This document shows, in pieces, positions 17,650 to 30,653 of a DNA stretch of 64,000 nucleotides (position 1 is its first letter; every line of letters starts with the position of its first letter). Below the pieces are notes generated by a model, which was given only the letters and a program-made list of their open reading frames with translations, did no database searches and was not told where the DNA came from. This DNA is from Patescibacteria group bacterium (GTDB lineage Bacteria > Patescibacteriota > Patescibacteriia > Buchananbacterales > UBA6539), in contig JBAZSB010000001.1 in NCBI GenBank assembly GCA_041662625.1, positions 374,467 to 438,466 on the forward strand. The letters are read 5' to 3'. A program made the translations under genes and the position numbers.

Positions 17650-18126
17650 TTAACCACCCGTAGTTACTTCTTTTGGCCACTGATATGGTACTTCCGTTGA
17701 ATTCCAGGCAACCCGATATTCATCAGGTTTTTCATAATCATACTTTTCGGTGGGGAGATTAATGATTTTGGCTTGTTCACAATCAATGGCAGTAAAGCCA
17801 TGGTAAACGCCGACAGGAATTTTTAATAAGATGTGTTCACCAGCCATTTCTGGTTCACTTAAGATAAATTCCTGAATTTTACCTTTAGTGGGTGAATCCG
17901 GTCGCGGATCATAGAGAACGACTAAGGCCTTACCTGCCACACAGATGAAATGGTCGGTTTGTTTTTGATGATAATGCCAACCTTTGGCCACGCCGCGTTT
18001 GACACCAGTCAGATATACCTGGCCAAATTTTTCAAAGACTTCATCGTCGTTTCTTAGCATCTCCATTAAAAATCCCCTTTCATCCGGAATGACTTTCAAT
18101 TTTTTTATTTTGGATCCATCAATCAT
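17650..18126 (-). CDS. rmlC: dTDP-4-dehydrorhamnose 3,5-epimerase-like cupin (short form)
   Basis: 158-aa cupin with the RmlC-like core (ERGFLMEMLRNDD...GWHYH...YDPR). Clustered with rmlA/B/D. Confidence 0.6.
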   Translation of the reverse strand: MIDGSKIKKLKVIPDERGFLMEMLRNDDEVFEKFGQVYLTGVKRGVAKGWHYHQKQTDHFICVAGKALVVLYDPRPDSPTKGKIQEFILSEPEMAGEHILLKIPVGVYHGFTAIDCEQAKIINLPTEKYDYEKPDEYRVAWNSTEVPYQWPKEVTTGG

Positions 18127-25682: not shown

Positions 25683-26852
25683 CTATAATAATTTAATCAG
25701 CTGCTTTAAATAGTTACTGACCGAAAAATTCCGAACTGAAACAAAACAATTCTTTTTCAGCTCTTCAATTTTTTCCGGATGATTCAAAAAATATTCTAAA
25801 ACCTCAATCAAATTTTTTTCATTACCCGGGGCAAAAGTAAAACCGTTGTAATCATCTTTGACAATTTCCGAAACACCACCGATATCAGCAGCAATCACCG
25901 GAACGTTGGCCACCAAACTTTCATCAATCACTTTGGGTGAATTTTCATAACAAAGTGAAGGCACAATCGTCAAATCAGCCTGGCGATAATAATCCGCTAA
26001 TTTGTCCTGCTCAACGCGGCCAATCAACTGAAAACGATTATCATCTTGGGCTAATCTTTTCGCTTCTTCCATCACTCCCCCGCCACCAACAACAGTCAGC
26101 TGCCAATTTTGCGGTTTTACTTTTTTCAAAGCCTCAATCAAAAGTAAAACACCTTTGAATCTTTCCAGCTGCCCGACAAACAATAAATTAATTTTTCGAT
26201 TTCTGATATCACCCAGTTCAATCTTTTCAACTTTTTTAAATTCCAAAGGATTAGGCATAATTAATTTTTTTGATTCATAGAAAAACCCCCGGGCCTGATA
26301 ATAACCCAGCAACCAGCGCGAGGGCGAAATTACCACATCAGGATTACTAAAAAGTCGCTTAACCGTTTTTTCATAAACTTTATCCAAAACCAAAAAAGGT
26401 TTTTCCGCTCCAAAAATTATCAAACCTGACGGCCGGGAAAGCTGGACATCATGAACCGTATGAAAATGGCGGATGCCGACTTTACGAATCGCTTTGGGAA
26501 TTAAATAACCCACACCTTTTAAATTATGAGTCATAACCACAGCGGGTTTTTCCTGCTCCAAAATCTTTTTCACCTGAGAATAACTGCTCAGATTAAAAAC
26601 ATCGATTGGATGCCACAACAAGCGCAACCAAACCGGCCGTTTATCAATATCCAAAAAAGAAAAAACATTTTTAGGCTTGATCCGGTAAATCGTCAATTTA
26701 CCCTCTTTGGTCACTGCCTTTTGCCGGCCTAAAGTAATCAAAACTACCTCATGGCCCAAACTCAAAAGGCCGCGGACAATGATTTCCACTACCACTTCCG
26801 CCCCACCCCGCTTATAGGGCTTGTATAGGCTATGAATTAGGCAAATCTTCAT
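25683..26852 (-). CDS. glycosyltransferase family 4 (GT-B)
   Basis: C-terminal GT1/GT4 signature (FVGQLERFKG...E...P). 389 aa. Confidence 0.8.
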   Translation of the reverse strand: MKICLIHSLYKPYKRGGAEVVVEIIVRGLLSLGHEVVLITLGRQKAVTKEGKLTIYRIKPKNVFSFLDIDKRPVWLRLLWHPIDVFNLSSYSQVKKILEQEKPAVVMTHNLKGVGYLIPKAIRKVGIRHFHTVHDVQLSRPSGLIIFGAEKPFLVLDKVYEKTVKRLFSNPDVVISPSRWLLGYYQARGFFYESKKLIMPNPLEFKKVEKIELGDIRNRKINLLFVGQLERFKGVLLLIEALKKVKPQNWQLTVVGGGGVMEEAKRLAQDDNRFQLIGRVEQDKLADYYRQADLTIVPSLCYENSPKVIDESLVANVPVIAADIGGVSEIVKDDYNGFTFAPGNEKNLIEVLEYFLNHPEKIEELKKNCFVSVRNFSVSNYLKQLIKLL

Positions 26853-27167
26853 ATTTCCAGTAAATGATTGAAAACTATACCATAAACTATGGCTAGTACC
26901 CTGCTTTTTAATTTTAGCATTTTTTAAGACTTTCTGGAAAATCTTTTGGTAATATAAGTATCAAAAAACATAGCGTTTTTTTAAGTTATTTGTTAGGATA
27001 TAACTAGGTTATAGGCGCTATGTTGGCAAGTTAATATTAGCTTATTTTAAATAAAAAAGTCAACAAGTTCGCATAAAAGAAGTTGTCGGAAATATTGTTC
27101 TTAAAAATAAAATACTTTGGGGAAGTTACTCTGCTTAATGGGTCAATGGATCAAAAGGAGATAAAAC

Positions 27168-27296
27168 ATGCTGTTAGAAGAAGAACAAAAAAAAGCCGAC
27201 CGACTGGATCGATTGCGTAGGATTTGCGAGAGAGTAAGAAAAGAAGTATACGAAGAAGTATGGTGCAGAGCTCATCATGTACACTGTTGTCCATAG
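27168..27296 (+). CDS. 42-aa Cys/His-rich peptide (MLLEEEQKKADRLDRLRRICERVRKEVYEEVWCRAHHVHCCP)
   Basis: AAGGAG at 27155-27160, 7 nt before the ATG. Too short for the ORF track. Followed by hairpin 27318-27348. Confidence 0.3.
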   Translation: MLLEEEQKKADRLDRLRRICERVRKEVYEEVWCRAHHVHCCP

Positions 27297-27317
27297 CTTT
27301 TCTATGGTACCTTTGTT

Positions 27318-27348
27318 GGGGAGAACGGAGAACTAAGTCGTTTTCCCC
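27318..27348 (+). terminator. 10-bp hairpin ggggagaacg / cgttttcccc, candidate terminator of the small peptide gene
   Basis: Stem with one G-U pair; the downstream T-tract is weak (tattttgtt). Confidence 0.35.
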
Positions 27349-27413
27349 ACTTCCCCAAAGTATTTTGTTAAAAAGGATAACAATACATCCAACAACACGT
27401 TTTATCTGGTTTC

Positions 27414-27433
27414 GCAAAAGAGATATAATCTGT
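27414..27433. repeat. left 20-bp terminal inverted repeat gcaaaagagatataatctgt
   Basis: Exact reverse complement of 27950-27969. Confidence 0.8.
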
Positions 27434-27486
27434 ACAAAGCAAAGACCCCTGAACAAGCGAGTCTTTACAAGAAACGCGTCCAGGGG

Positions 27487-27768
27487 TTAGGAGTTGTGTG
27501 GATCATGCCGCAGGGCATTATCTAGTGCAAGCCGGCTTTCCGTCAAAGGTCCACCCATGCGGGCAACTTCCTGTCTGATTTCGTTAACCAGTTCTTCGGG
27601 TAACCCTTGCACCGTTCGCATAATGTCGTAGAGGGCCTCTGGTGTTGCTCCCTCATAAGAGCATAACCTGCGAACAGTTTCGGCTTGTTTGGCAACGAGC
27701 GCGTGCCGAAATATCAAGCTGTGCTCAGCTAGTTTTCGGCCAAGTGCCTTCAATACTCTTCTAAACAT
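27487..27768 (-). CDS. hypothetical 93-aa protein, GC-rich (about 53%), inside the IR-bounded segment
   Basis: AAAGGAGA Shine-Dalgarno 5 nt before the ATG (minus strand). A stem-loop (7-bp stem ccctggg / cccaggg style, large loop) plus T-rich tail follows the stop. Confidence 0.45.
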   Translation of the reverse strand: MFRRVLKALGRKLAEHSLIFRHALVAKQAETVRRLCSYEGATPEALYDIMRTVQGLPEELVNEIRQEVARMGGPLTESRLALDNALRHDPHNS

Positions 27769-27841
27769 CGTCGTCTCCTTTACCGTAGATTCATTTTTTG
27801 CCTTACTTGACCATAACTAGCTACAACTATCGTGAAATTAT

Positions 27842-27869
27842 TACCAATTATGGTTAGATAAGGTATCTG
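27842..27869 (-). promoter_or_regulatory. direct repeats TTATCTAAC (x2, 19-bp register) with an embedded tagata-agg-tatct palindrome in the leader of ORF 27487..27768
   Basis: gttagataa at 27842-27850 and 27861-27869 (plus strand). TTGACA/TTGACT hexamers lie upstream (minus strand) at about 27893-27915. Confidence 0.35.
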
Positions 27870-27949
27870 AAGTTAGATAAATAACAATAGCATATTTATA
27901 TATTTTTGTCAATAAGAAATAGTCAAAAAATACTAAATTTATCCAAAAA

Positions 27950-27969
27950 ACAGATTATATCTCTTTTGC
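27950..27969. repeat. right 20-bp terminal inverted repeat acagattatatctcttttgc
   Basis: Exact reverse complement of 27414-27433. Confidence 0.8.
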
Positions 27970-27983
27970 TCCACCCAAATTCT

Positions 27984-28034
27984 GCACATATTTCTGCGGT
28001 GACCTCCGGTCAATTTTACCACAGAAATATGTGT
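27984..28034. other. 17-bp imperfect inverted repeat (gcacatatttctgcggt ... accacagaaatatgtgt) with a 17-nt loop
   Basis: One mismatch and one wobble. Immediately outside the right IR. Confidence 0.4.
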
Positions 28035-28107
28035 AGAACTTCAGATAAAACGGTAATGTTGTATTTAATCGAGAAAGGATAAACATAATTAAATAAATAT
28101 TACCTAT

Positions 28108-28422
28108 ATGCTATTTTTTGAAACAAAAGATAAAGGAGAATATATCTATTTTAGAAGAAAAAAATTTACATTACAATTGGCGTTTATTCCGGCAATATGT
28201 TACTTTGTTTTGTTCCCAATCATTTATTCTATTTTCAGGTCAGGTGCCTTAGCTATAGCTATAGCACTTTTACTGTTGCTATTTTGGTTTTTTGGAATGT
28301 GGATGGCAATCGAGGGTGTAATAGCTGGATCTAAAATTAAAAAACAAAAAAAGCAAGGTAAAAAGATTGAATATGAGCATGGTGAATCATCTGGAATCCG
28401 AGGGGTTAAAATATATAAATAG
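28108..28422 (+). CDS. small membrane protein
   Basis: 104 aa, two TM helices, lysine-rich tail. Confidence 0.4.
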   Translation: MLFFETKDKGEYIYFRRKKFTLQLAFIPAICYFVLFPIIYSIFRSGALAIAIALLLLLFWFFGMWMAIEGVIAGSKIKKQKKQGKKIEYEHGESSGIRGVKIYK

Positions 28423-28525
28423 AAAGCCCTTTCTCGACTAAATCTAACGCGTTTTATAAGGCTCACCCATTACTAAGTAGTTCGGCTCGCGGACATTTCA
28501 AATATTAATAGTTAACGCAAAAAAT

Positions 28526-28897
28526 ATGGGAAAAAAAGTTAATAAATTTGTTTATTGGGCACCGAGAATACTAGCGATTTTATTTATACTATTTCTGGCT
28601 ATGTTTTCGTTGGATATTTTTGACGGCAACTACGGATTCTGGGGAACAATTGTGGGATTATTTATGCATAATATCCCAGCCTTGATCTTGCTAGCAGTTC
28701 TCATAATTTCTTGGAAATATGAAATAGTCGGAGGAATCGTATTTATTCTGGCCGGACTAGCATATATTATAATGCTAATGATGAACCAAACATTTGAATG
28801 GTATATGCTATCCTGGGCTCTAACAATTTCTGGACCGGCATTTCTGGTAGGAATTCTATTTTTGATTAACTGGATTAAGAAAAGCCGACATAATTAA
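28526..28897 (+). CDS. membrane protein (4 TM)
   Basis: 123 aa, hydrophobic. Confidence 0.45.
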   Translation: MGKKVNKFVYWAPRILAILFILFLAMFSLDIFDGNYGFWGTIVGLFMHNIPALILLAVLIISWKYEIVGGIVFILAGLAYIIMLMMNQTFEWYMLSWALTISGPAFLVGILFLINWIKKSRHN

Positions 28898-28931
28898 AGC
28901 TGTTTAATCAAAATTTTACATAATAAATGCA

Positions 28932-29017
28932 TGTTAGGTCTAGGAATTATAATTTTAATTGTTTTGGCGGTAATAATAGCCTTGATCATGGGTGCCCGAG
29001 AAGATAAAAATAGTTAG
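28932..29017 (+). CDS. 28-aa single-TM micropeptide (MLGLGIIILIVLAVIIALIMGAREDKNS)
   Basis: Read manually. Below the ORF-track size cut-off. No clear Shine-Dalgarno. Confidence 0.2.
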
Positions 29018-29081
29018 ATCATCCTTTACTCTTGACTTTTTACAAAAATTATGGTATTATTAATAATGAATTAATAAATAA

Positions 29082-29606
29082 TTGAATAATACTATGATAA
29101 GTCTTGAAAAAGGAGATCCTACACTCCAAGAAATGGGGATTGAACCAGACCAAGATGAATCAACTGAGCTTCCCCAAATACCTGAAGAAAAAAAATCAGA
29201 ATCAGGTATTACACCTGAACAATTGGCTGAAGCGATAAAAAAAGCTGAAGGAAATTATGGCAATGTATATCTTGACACGCCACTTGGAGATGCGACTCCG
29301 TATATAATAAGCGGCGACCAGGTAATGGTTGAATTTGTCGGCATGCCTGACTCAAGGCACTCTTTTGATATGAAGGATTTGAGATTAATTGATAAACCAA
29401 ATATTGATGATAGACCAAAGCCGTCGGCAAGTATTTATCCTGAAGGAGAAGGAGAAACCGATCCAGAAGATGACTTATATGCTGAACAAAGAATAATTCC
29501 TACTGATGGCGGCTTAGTGGAAGGCAGAATTGTTTCAGGACTTAAAGGTGGACCAGGGGTAATAGAAACTGATAAGGGAAAATTAAGAGTTAATAGATTA
29601 GGATAA
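29082..29606 (+). CDS. hypothetical acidic protein
   Basis: 174-aa ORF. No family recognised. Confidence 0.4.
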   Translation: MNNTMISLEKGDPTLQEMGIEPDQDESTELPQIPEEKKSESGITPEQLAEAIKKAEGNYGNVYLDTPLGDATPYIISGDQVMVEFVGMPDSRHSFDMKDLRLIDKPNIDDRPKPSASIYPEGEGETDPEDDLYAEQRIIPTDGGLVEGRIVSGLKGGPGVIETDKGKLRVNRLG

Positions 29607-29722
29607 ACCTTATATTAAAAAAGTTAGAAGCATAATAAAAGCAGTTATCTTTGATTGGAATGGCGTCATTATCAATGCCATGGCTGCTCATCAAATAGAA
29701 ATAAAATCAAACAAATAAAAGC

Positions 29723-30220
29723 ATGCTAGTTGGAATTGCCGGCTTGCCTGGCTCAGGCAAAACAAAAATCACTTGGGCTTTAGAAAAGCAAGGCTTCAAA
29801 GGTTTACATCGTGATGATTTCATTACTTTTTTGTTTAACCCAGTTGATTATAGTTCCCGAGCCCAAAAAGATCTTGCCTTCAAGATAATGCTAGCAGTAG
29901 CTGAATATTATTTAAAGCATAATAAAAATGTGGCACTGGATTGCCCTTCCTTCAGCCAAAAATGGGCGGTAAATTTGGCAAGGGCAACTGCCAAAAAAGC
30001 TAAAACTAAATTTAAATTAATTTACTGCCAGTGCCCGGATGAAATTGCAATCAAAAGGATTAAAAAAGCAAAACATCATATTGCGACTGACCGCACCCCA
30101 AAACTTTATTTTGAAGTTAAAGCCCGCTTTGAACCAATTAAAATCAAACATAAAAAAATCAATACCAATCGACCGCTGGCACAGACAATAAAGGAAGTTA
30201 ACCAGTATCTGAAAAAGTAG
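29723..30220 (+). CDS. P-loop NTPase / small kinase-like protein
   Basis: Walker A GLPGSGKT at the N-terminus. Confidence 0.55.
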   Translation: MLVGIAGLPGSGKTKITWALEKQGFKGLHRDDFITFLFNPVDYSSRAQKDLAFKIMLAVAEYYLKHNKNVALDCPSFSQKWAVNLARATAKKAKTKFKLIYCQCPDEIAIKRIKKAKHHIATDRTPKLYFEVKARFEPIKIKHKKINTNRPLAQTIKEVNQYLKK

Positions 30221-30278
30221 ATTTAAATAAAAATCGCCTTTTGACTGAACTCAAGGCGGTTTTTTAATAATATAAGTC

Positions 30279-30653
30279 CTAACTATTATTTGGCTTTTTT
30301 TGGAAGAAACATAAAATTGCAAAAAATAAAATTCCCATCCCATCGATTCCGATATCTTTAAGGCTTGCCACCCGGCCCGCCACATAGCTTTGGTGCCATT
30401 CATCAAAACCAGCATAGGCCAACGATAGGATAAAAGCAAAAATTAATGAGGTTTTTGAATTGATTTTAGACTGCCCCAAAGCCCGAAAAAATAAATAGGC
30501 CAAAATAAAAAATTCTGCCATGTGGGCAATCTTTCGGAAGATATAGTCCCAGAACGGTTCCAGGCTTGATTTGAGGTCAGGCTGAGCCGAAAAATAGTAA
30601 ATTACTCCCATCCAAGCGATGACAGCAAGCCAATTAAAGATTTTCTTTGACAT
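30279..30653 (-). CDS. VanZ-like family membrane protein
   Basis: FDEWHQSYVAGRVASLKDIGIDGMG motif, 4 TM. Confidence 0.55.
   Translation of the reverse strand: MSKKIFNWLAVIAWMGVIYYFSAQPDLKSSLEPFWDYIFRKIAHMAEFFILAYLFFRALGQSKINSKTSLIFAFILSLAYAGFDEWHQSYVAGRVASLKDIGIDGMGILFFAILCFFQKKPNNS

Follow-up and report, generated by a model that had tools for sequence, protein, structure and literature searches.

A perfect inverted repeat around a small gene in a Patescibacteria genome probably closes a side arm of an attC-like site in a degraded integron-like array

Bacteria of the Candidate Phyla Radiation (CPR), or Patescibacteria, have tiny genomes and few known mobile elements, and integrons have been described chiefly in Proteobacteria and, of late, also in Archaea. 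In the integration of CTX phage attP(+) by XerCD, a recombinase of the Xer type acts on a single-stranded DNA hairpin that imitates a two-arm core site. The pdif (Xer) modules of Acinetobacter plasmids have 28-bp duplex sites with an 11-6-11 layout and palindromic inner arms and are presumed to be moved by Xer-type recombinases, and in mobile insertion cassettes and miniature inverted-repeat transposable elements (MITEs), such as MIC231 of Bacillus cereus, inverted repeats bracket a passenger gene and the transposase does not lie inside. Here we analyze a perfect 20-bp inverted repeat that encloses a small gene in a 64-kb stretch of a Patescibacteria genome (the window; contig JBAZSB010000001.1). 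An earlier reading of this DNA from its letters alone (the sequence-only reading) had proposed that the repeat marks a miniature mobile element, an invertible segment, or a long-range RNA stem. Our analysis indicates that it is probably the closing stem of a gene-carrying side arm (P2) of an attC-like site, in a degraded integron-like array, rather than the end of a transposon. The features that define integrons and attC sites were taken from PMC5027507, PMC9668308, and PMC9024848. In a canonical attC site, extrahelical bases of the L box and an unpaired central spacer confer strand choice (PMC5027507), and the canonical integron integrase is a tyrosine recombinase with an IntI-specific additional domain around patch III (PMC9668308). 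Coordinates without a prefix are those of the window (Table 1), and L-numbers (L001 to L033) denote the compared contigs or loci.

The locus and its relatives resemble integron arrays, including the degraded, integrase-lacking arrays termed CALIN, in that a recombinase gene diverges from an array of short, mostly orphan open reading frames (ORFs). They also have an attI-like site with its crossover at GTT, all their sites have one orientation, strains differ by whole cassettes, and an R' lying upstream of a cassette is part of it. Like attC, the sites, which we call S units, are palindromic but imperfect: AAC...GTT alone never varies, the R and L boxes are paired, the spacer is not, and the terminal structure is variable. 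Unlike in integrons, the S-unit recombinase has 272–275 amino acids (aa) and lacks the IntI-specific domain, the complementarity of the cassette ends spans 19–57 nt instead of 7, and the host is a Patescibacteria (CPR) bacterium. Unlike attC, some S units contain complete genes within the variable arm, closed by mostly perfect inverted repeats. The likeness to CTX integration by XerCD lies in the Xer-type recombinase and in a folded single-stranded site, which we infer here; the CTX case differs in being a single integration at dif, without a cassette array, an attI-like platform, or cargo in the hairpin. Like pdif modules, the units described below are discrete gene modules bounded by inversely oriented recombinase sites common to neighbors, but their conserved features are long-range complementary stems. 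A dif or pdif site was rejected as a candidate, since neither 28042–28069 nor the 20-mer has the 11-6-11 layout or dif-like inner palindromy.

The perfect inverted repeat itself is real: GCAAAAGAGATATAATCTGT at 27414–27433 is the exact reverse complement of 27950–27969, the arms are 516 nt apart, and the whole segment measures 556 bp. The sequence-only reading had considered a chance origin very unlikely, and this assessment holds, with only 2 copies of the 20-mer in the window (allowing up to 3 mismatches) and 0.02 predicted from shuffled sequence. The edges of the repeat are sharp, complementarity being absent just inside and just outside the 20-mer. The same reading had described a complete expression unit inside the repeat, and we recovered all its parts (promoter, Shine-Dalgarno sequence, 93-aa ORF, and stem-loop, all on the minus strand, together with the direct repeats), as well as the TATAAT hexamer in each arm; as claimed, no transposase lies within. 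The promoter, with 10 of 12 matches, is the best sigma-70-like site of the region, and the G+C content of the interior is 48–53%, as against 27–36% in the flanks.

The limits of the unit became apparent from a second copy. Scanning of the JGI metagenomes for the 20-mer returned the window locus and one other contig, L004, of which L007 is a longer version from another sample. In L004/L007, the arms are identical in sequence to those of the window and lie 615–617 nt apart, and window positions 27392–27487 and 27888–28062 align to this locus at 90% and 86%, respectively, so that conservation extends 22 nt and 93 nt outside the arms. The enclosed ORFs are unrelated (93 aa in the window and 133 aa in L004/L007; BLASTP E = 2.6), and the flanking genes differ too. 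Because the ends are conserved past both arms while cargo and neighbors differ, the true unit runs from ACAAC at 27392 to GTTGT at 28062 and is wider than the 20-mers. This unit, S_win, consists from 5' to 3' of ACAAC, A, an 11-nt box (L''), GGTTTC, the inverted repeat with everything between its arms, TCCACCC, a hairpin (P3), an 11-nt box (L'), GTAAT, and GTTGT. Between the window and L004/L007, the P3 hairpin shows two compensatory double changes and one change from G-T to A-T. Single-strand folding of 27392–28062 gave nested stems for either strand, with z-scores of −7.9 and −8.8; the predicted fold comprises an outer stem formed by CGTTTTATCTG/CAGATAAAACG and ACAAC/GTTGT, a 65-nt hairpin, and the 20-bp stem closing a loop of 516 nt. 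Comparison of L017 with L007 gave a similar division, in that the two have nearly the same sequence as far as the repeat's inner edge (975 nt with 2 mismatches and 1 gap) and differ within it. As judged from these alignments, the framing arms appear to be the conserved part of the unit and the enclosed gene its exchangeable cargo.

The same layout, in which AAC and a single A precede an 11-nt box and, after a variable middle, the exact complement of this box is followed by 4–5 unpaired nt and GTT, recurs in related Patescibacteria contigs, where S units form same-orientation arrays and alternate with small orphan genes. L007 contains 4 such units within 3 kb on one strand and a truncated fifth; the layout was found 5 times in L024, twice each in L025 and L032, and once each in L030 and the 64-kb window. 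S units without cargo are 84–105 nt long, and two of them keep the junctions of the window unit (GGTTTC ... TCCACCC) around a 16- or 17-nt hairpin instead of 556 bp. Across sites, the P2 arm measures 16, 17, 40 (L024), 459 (L011), 556 (window), and 657 nt (L007), and in three S units (window, L007, and L011) it houses a gene. The L011 arm is closed by a 31-nt repeat, 87% complementary, whose sequence is unlike the window's but likewise contains TATAAT. In L032, a perfect 23-nt repeat, unrelated in sequence, closes a gene-bearing site of 518 nt whose gene is oppositely oriented, and in L024 a gene is closed by a perfect 20-nt repeat, again unrelated in sequence to the window 20-mer. The perfect inner repeats are thus 20, 20–21, and 23 nt long and unrelated in sequence, and the outer repeats at the cassette ends are 73–96% complementary. 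We also observed a perfect 21-nt inverted repeat in L032 (5892–5912 and 6691–6711) within a called 345-aa SduA_C-like ORF; the cassette of this ORF has its own 25-nt end repeat, and either the ORF call is chimeric or the 21-nt repeat is coding.

Alignment of 12 sites showed that AAC and GTT are invariant (12/12) and that the L box is Watson-Crick paired in 132 of 132 cells, with no G-T pairs. Both sides have changed in 9 of the 11 pairs, and none of 500 shuffles reached the observed covariation score; when the register was slid by 1–3 columns, only 26–45% of the cells paired. Some R boxes match the consensus exactly (ACCTAAC/GTTAGGT). In four consecutive sites of L024, R'' is complementary at 9/9 positions to the 5' R' of its own cassette and at only 6–7/9 to the R' in the same site, the pattern that insertion of circles at G|TT would leave.

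In the window, S_win is part of a short array. In a flank-complementarity test of 57 window genes, the 42-aa, 93-aa, and 104-aa ORFs located at 27082–28448 scored 37, 38, and 27, respectively, with control scores averaging 18 and reaching 27, so that the score of the 104-aa ORF equals the control maximum. The three ORFs are consecutive and each is bracketed by GTT...AAC. Cassette 1 extends from about 27083 to 28058, comprises the 42-aa ORF and S_win, and has a 45-nt end repeat that is 73% complementary; its first nucleotides, GTTGTCGGAAATA, also start cassettes in L019 and L024. Cassette 2 has a 21-nt end repeat with 18 of 21 positions (86%) complementary. It is followed by the truncated site at 28446–28520, which is 86.5% identical to the 5' half of an L019/L024 site (L019 367–316). 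The window thus holds 2 cassettes and 1 truncated site, compared with 9 cassettes and at least 5 strict sites in L024 and 5 sites in L007/L011, in each case on one strand. The region that follows (28526–30220) is missing from the relatives and has no recognizable S units, and the conserved VanZ-side flank resumes at 30214–30291.

A candidate cognate tyrosine recombinase, of the kind that the sequence-only reading had advised seeking elsewhere in the genome, is present as a pseudogene about 440 bp to the left of the segment and is intact at the same site in a relative whose family 4 glycosyltransferase (GT4) is 89% identical; the proposal that the segment belongs to mobile or exchangeable DNA is likewise supported. 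By blastn, 26945–26854 matches L019 3702–3795 at 80% with a 2-nt gap, and L019 3108–3701 and 3796–3950 are missing from the window. Relative to the intact L019 gene, the remnant therefore has two internal deletions, and its in-frame translation contains 5 stops. Intact recombinase genes adjoin the arrays in L019/L024, L025–28, L030/31, and L032/33. These four platforms lie in four different gene neighborhoods, and the recombinase is always divergent from the array. The L019 protein matches PF00589 and, with 244 bits against a cut-off of 220, NF040815 (XerA/'integron integrase'). Its best solved relative is VchIntIA (E = 2e-45), to which it aligns in two pieces (12–183 and 240–319); its alignment with archaeal XerA is end to end. 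About 130 bp that separate the recombinase start from the array are conserved in five platforms (window, L024, L025, L030, and L032), and a five-way alignment diverges immediately after GTT; the window region is 88% identical to L019/L024 and 75% identical to L025. On the basis of these alignments, an attI-like site appears to adjoin the recombinase gene, with cassettes inserted at G|TT. Genes of PD-(D/E)XK nuclease families (PDDEXK_1 and PDDEXK_3) adjoin two of the arrays or platforms (L011 4272–5024 and L025 5119–5640).

The GT4 gene beside the window island belongs to a graded series of orthologues, which puts the organism close to Candidatus Buchananbacteria, and the content between VanZ and GT4 varies along this series. 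In L020 (GT4 81%), nothing lies between them and VanZ abuts GT4, which represents an empty site; L021/L022 (GT4 78%) have one gene at this place; and in L019/L024 (GT4 89%) an intact gene for a 275-aa tyrosine recombinase stands beside GT4 and is followed by nine small genes. Each of these nine is bracketed by a 20–27-nt GTT...AAC repeat, S units are placed alternately among them, and the orientation is the same throughout and divergent from the recombinase. In L030, VanZ abuts a GT4 gene of 389 aa, and the platform is located upstream of another GT4 gene (382 aa). L030/L031 819–1646, compared with window 26854–30300, places recombinase and attI-like platform elsewhere in a relative from the window's own samples (ERZ27249449 and 3300014208). 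From this different position, the platform has either moved, or been lost and regained, within the glycan locus.

Strain comparisons place the breakpoints at GTT. L019 and L024, which come from different samples, are 99.97% identical over 3.7 kb up to ...CTTATAAAACG[G/A]TAACGTT and unrelated past GTT. L004 and L007 differ upstream of ATACGTT, the start of L004 being the 3' end of another S unit, joined at GATAC-GTT to a cassette that in L007 stands behind a different unit. The first 24 nt of L004 recur at L004 1518–1541, that is, the same S-unit 3' end with GTT is found 1517 bp apart. The left junction of L004 (sample 3300025323) could come from a two-cassette circle or from a duplicated or rearranged array, with 17 nt only being diagnostic.

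These observations suggest a model in which the window carries a small, degraded integron-like platform made up of a dead recombinase gene, an attI-like region ending in the GTT core at 27082, and two cassettes, each of which would have been inserted in circular form through recombination at GTT. In single-stranded DNA, the R box (ACAAC/GTTGT) and the 11-bp L box (CGTTTTATCTG/CAGATAAAACG) would pair and, with an unpaired spacer that is asymmetric, mimic the two-arm core site of a tyrosine recombinase. The terminal, variable part of S_win would form a three-way junction with the 556-bp segment as its P2 branch, and the 20-bp stem would loop out promoter, 93-aa ORF, and terminator and so hold the two halves of the site next to each other. 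Recombination would then use folded single strands, and the recombinase would presumably act on the S-unit sites. The 20-bp stem may have been kept because it preserves the folding of the site; as a conjecture, the stem may also bring a kinetic benefit.

Several results weigh against this interpretation. In equilibrium folding with DNA parameters, P(L box) was 0.96 with the inverted repeat and 0.63–0.98 (mean 0.86) with one arm shuffled, which lends weak support to a role in folding. Independent copies of this 20-mer number only 2, and it is not obvious how selection for folding would leave the inner repeats perfect and the outer ones imperfect (73–96%). The aligned sites had been chosen by at least 8–9 Watson-Crick pairs, and the complete pairing of the L box is therefore partly built in, the double changes alone being informative. 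The L box differs from that of attC in having no extrahelical bases, the asymmetry residing instead in a 1-nt (5') versus a 4–5-nt (3') spacer; the unpaired 4–5-nt spacer lies in the same arm as the canonical extrahelical bases, as read from PMC5027507. For TIGR02249 (integron integrase), the L019 recombinase scored 229 bits, below the cut-off of 265, and VchIntIA residues 184–239, 56 residues that include the IntI-specific domain, are replaced in it by 14 aa. Lacking this domain, the system is integron-like in anatomy and falls short of a canonical integron on one defining point.

Several of the same features would also fit a non-autonomous transposable element of the mobile insertion cassette or MITE type that carries a passenger gene, with the 20-mers as terminal inverted repeats (one of the proposals of the sequence-only reading) and a site-specific insertion into the loop of a structured repeat. 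As in such elements, the repeat brackets a passenger gene without an internal transposase; it is perfect and sharp-edged and encloses a complete expression unit of higher G+C than the host DNA; the 20-mer pair recurs in a second genomic context with a different passenger; and the difference between L017 and L007 starts at the repeat's inner edge. We nevertheless consider this explanation distinctly unlikely. Conservation passes the arms to 27392 and 28062, and no target-site duplication lies outside them, the flanking TC being present also around the 16-nt arm of cargo-less units. In 241 million metagenome records, 185,579 species genomes, and IMG/VR, the 20-mer pair occurs at two loci only, which do not make a dispersed family; the sole other match to the 20-mer, in an Oscillospiraceae contig of the species-genome collection, has no flanking similarity and was judged to be chance, and IMG/VR gave 0 matches for both the 20-mer and the hairpin core. 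There is no cognate transposase among the 20 window ORFs tested, and sister units have repeats of unrelated sequence at the same position. The repeat stays as a conserved frame while the interior changes, the reverse of what is expected for an element with its own ends. That the 20-mers are the crossover sites of a tyrosine-recombinase inversion switch, which would redirect the internal promoter to the GT4 operon on the left or to the membrane-protein genes on the right, is highly improbable. In its favor, the neighborhood formerly had a tyrosine recombinase gene at a distance of about 440 bp, the genes on either side diverge, the segment's promoter could act outward, and the analogous unit of L032 has its gene opposite relative to the site. 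However, the 8 independent assemblies that span the repeat, 4 of the window type (window, L001, L002, and L003=L005) and 4 of the L007 type (L004=L008, L007, L009, and L010), all have one orientation, and the recombinase is here a stop-riddled remnant whose conserved sites elsewhere are AAC/GTT cores and not 20-mers. Promoter and ORF, both inside the segment, would moreover invert together, and a terminator-like hairpin stands 3' of the ORF.

The remaining proposal of the sequence-only reading, a long-range stem, survives as far as the stem is concerned, which more probably belongs to the single-stranded DNA of a recombination site than to an mRNA. In an RNA version, a transcript across both arms, for example from read-through of an array promoter, would form a 20-bp duplex that serves as an RNase III processing or insulation signal or stabilizes the cargo mRNA end to end. 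Both strands fold far better than shuffled sequences, the minimum-free-energy and the centroid structures both contain the 20-bp stem, and every small gene of the island is bracketed by complementary flanks, as rRNA operons are by processing stems. Because the best promoter lies inside the repeat, however, the cargo mRNA would lack the upstream arm, which makes an mRNA stem less probable. The absence of G-U pairs in 132 L-box cells fits DNA better, the 23-bp stem of L032 would bury a start codon, no Rfam families were matched, and the strain breakpoints at GTT indicate DNA recombination. We therefore regard a function in RNA as unlikely. The repeat might also have no present function and be a by-product of gene capture into a hairpin loop, by snap-back or templated synthesis, which is perfect because it is young. 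The inner repeats are indeed perfect and the older cassette-end repeats 73–96% complementary, and equilibrium folding hardly needs the stem; but two copies that have diverged by 10–14% in the adjoining sequence share the identical 20-mer, and the L011 arms differ in sequence from the window's and are yet 87% complementary. Both facts point to maintenance rather than youth, and this explanation has little chance of being correct.

Table 1. Positions of the features discussed, in window coordinates unless a locus is named
Feature	Position	Strand	Remarks
Xer/IntI-like tyrosine recombinase remnant	26854–26972	-	start ATGTTTTTTGAT 26972–26961 (first four codons) and box II fragment 26945–26854
attI-like platform region, recombinase start to crossover core	26973–27081		ends GTTCGCATAAAAGAA just before GTT
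GTT core and extended R' end of cassette 1	27082–27126	+	GTTGTCGGAAATA...; pairs with 27349–27396
42-aa ORF of cassette 1	27168–27296	+	own Shine-Dalgarno sequence; then hairpins 27291–27307 and 27312–27345
Extended R'' end of cassette 1	27349–27396	+	ends CATCCAACAAC; homologous to CATCCGACAAC in L019
S_win, attC-like structured site	27392–28062	+	ends 86–90% conserved with L004/L007
S_win R'' ACAAC	27392–27396
S_win spacer A	27397
S_win L''	27398–27408
S_win GGTTTC junction	27408–27413
S_win P2 arm	27414–27969
Left arm of inverted repeat	27414–27433	+	5' strand of P2 stem
Terminator-like stem-loop	27444–27487	-	3' of 93-aa ORF stop; within block conserved with L007
Cargo ORF, 93 aa	27487–27768	-	all-helical (predicted), orphan, G+C-rich relative to host DNA
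Shine-Dalgarno sequence of 93-aa ORF	27775–27780	-
Two GTTAGATAA direct repeats	27853–27861 and 27872–27880	+	TTATCTAAC on minus strand; between promoter and Shine-Dalgarno sequence
Cargo promoter	27884–27912	-	TTGACA 27912–27907, 17-nt spacer, TATTGT 27889–27884, TG extension; part of the promoter module that L007, L011, and L019 also have
Right arm of inverted repeat	27950–27969	+	3' strand of P2 stem
S_win TCCACCC	27970–27976
S_win P3 hairpin	27977–28041	+	24-nt arms
S_win L'	28042–28052
S_win spacer GTAAT	28053–28057
S_win R' GTTGT	28058–28062
Cassette 2	28058–28448	+	R' GTTGTATTTAATCGAGAAAGG, 104-aa membrane-protein ORF 28108–28422, R'' CCTTTCTCGACTAAATCTAAC
Truncated attC-like site	28446–28520	+	AAC-G-CGTTTTATAAG-GCTCACCC... 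kept, 3' half lost
Rest of variable region	28526–30220	+	DUF7670, 174-aa ORF, AAA_33 kinase-like ORF
Promoter module copies	27888–27925; L011 4146–4189; L019 ~1640–1665; L007 1062–1100

The 93-aa cargo protein is an orphan. It had no family matches in Pfam, PHROGs, NCBIfam, or PADLOC, and a word-indexed search of 5.8 billion proteins returned only the query itself. An exhaustive HMMER search of 1.84 billion representatives gave a 44-aa fragment of the same protein and weak, multi-stretch helical matches, with no real relatives. The AlphaFold model is all-helical and of low confidence (predicted local distance difference test score, pLDDT, of 63), and Foldseek found no fold match to it in the PDB (E >= 0.57). 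The 42-aa ORF of cassette 1 likewise had no family matches. Upstream of the cargo ORF, the two GTTAGATAA repeats fit the integron core consensus GTTRRRY, and TATCTGAAGTT, which lies between them, is complementary to the P3/L' junction at 28037–28047; the repeats could be an operator, a relic half-site, or chance. A promoter module consisting of TTGACA, 11 nt, and AATATGCTA or a near variant (TAGCATAT...TTGTCAA on the opposite strand) precedes several unrelated, reverse-oriented cassette genes in different organisms.

For the whole window, Rfam gave 0 families at gathering thresholds, and Rfam holds no attC family; permissive scans of 26800–28200 and of L004 yielded only chance microRNA-like matches, and a search for tRNA and tmRNA genes found none. 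A tRNA-like element or ribozyme was accordingly dropped as having no supporting matches. Pairing of mRNA ends of the hok/sok type was dropped because the promoter sits within the repeat, a retron or diversity-generating element because there is no reverse transcriptase, and an element of the IS200/IS605 type because the ends pair with each other and TnpA/TnpB are absent. Pfam matches were obtained for 16 of 20 sampled window ORFs, and all 16, together with GT4, belong to cell-surface glycan or sugar metabolism or are related enzymes. The glycan genes include a rhamnose pathway, many GT2 and GT4 glycosyltransferases, radical SAM/SPASM enzymes, PMT_2, and an LPG synthase-like protein, and the cassette island lies mid-way within this region. 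The only gene outside the island with unusual flank complementarity is a dTDP-sugar epimerase-like gene at 17650–18126, which scored 29 against the control maximum of 27.

A full-text literature search found no integron or cassette-array reports for Patescibacteria or the Candidate Phyla Radiation, and a text search for Patescibacteria in the papers on archaeal integrons and IntegronFinder 2.0 found no mention of the term. The window copy is decayed, and its interest lies in the family that it reveals. We tentatively suggest, as a possibility to which we give somewhat less than even weight, that Buchananbacteria-like Patescibacteria carry an undescribed integron-like system in which circular cassettes are captured at a GTT core by a short recombinase that is related to Xer/IntI and has no IntI domain, and in which attC-like sites house complete genes in side arms closed by mostly perfect inverted repeats. 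Such gene-bearing sites could form a second level of exchangeable cargo, or they could be intermediates in the making of new cassettes. To our knowledge, how new integron cassettes are made remains unexplained, and whole genes in stem-closed arms, with cargo differing between near-identical strains, would offer a way to ask how genes pair with attC sites. The recombinase of this system would fail the standard IntI test, and standard tools would miss the system. In these genomes, a small gene flanked by a perfect inverted repeat would indicate cassette anatomy and not a transposon. If the system is active, cassette capture at folded AAC/GTT sites would predate the IntI clade or extend more widely than it among Xer-like recombinases, and CPR bacteria would own a dedicated gene-shuffling platform, located in several relatives within or beside cell-surface glycan loci.

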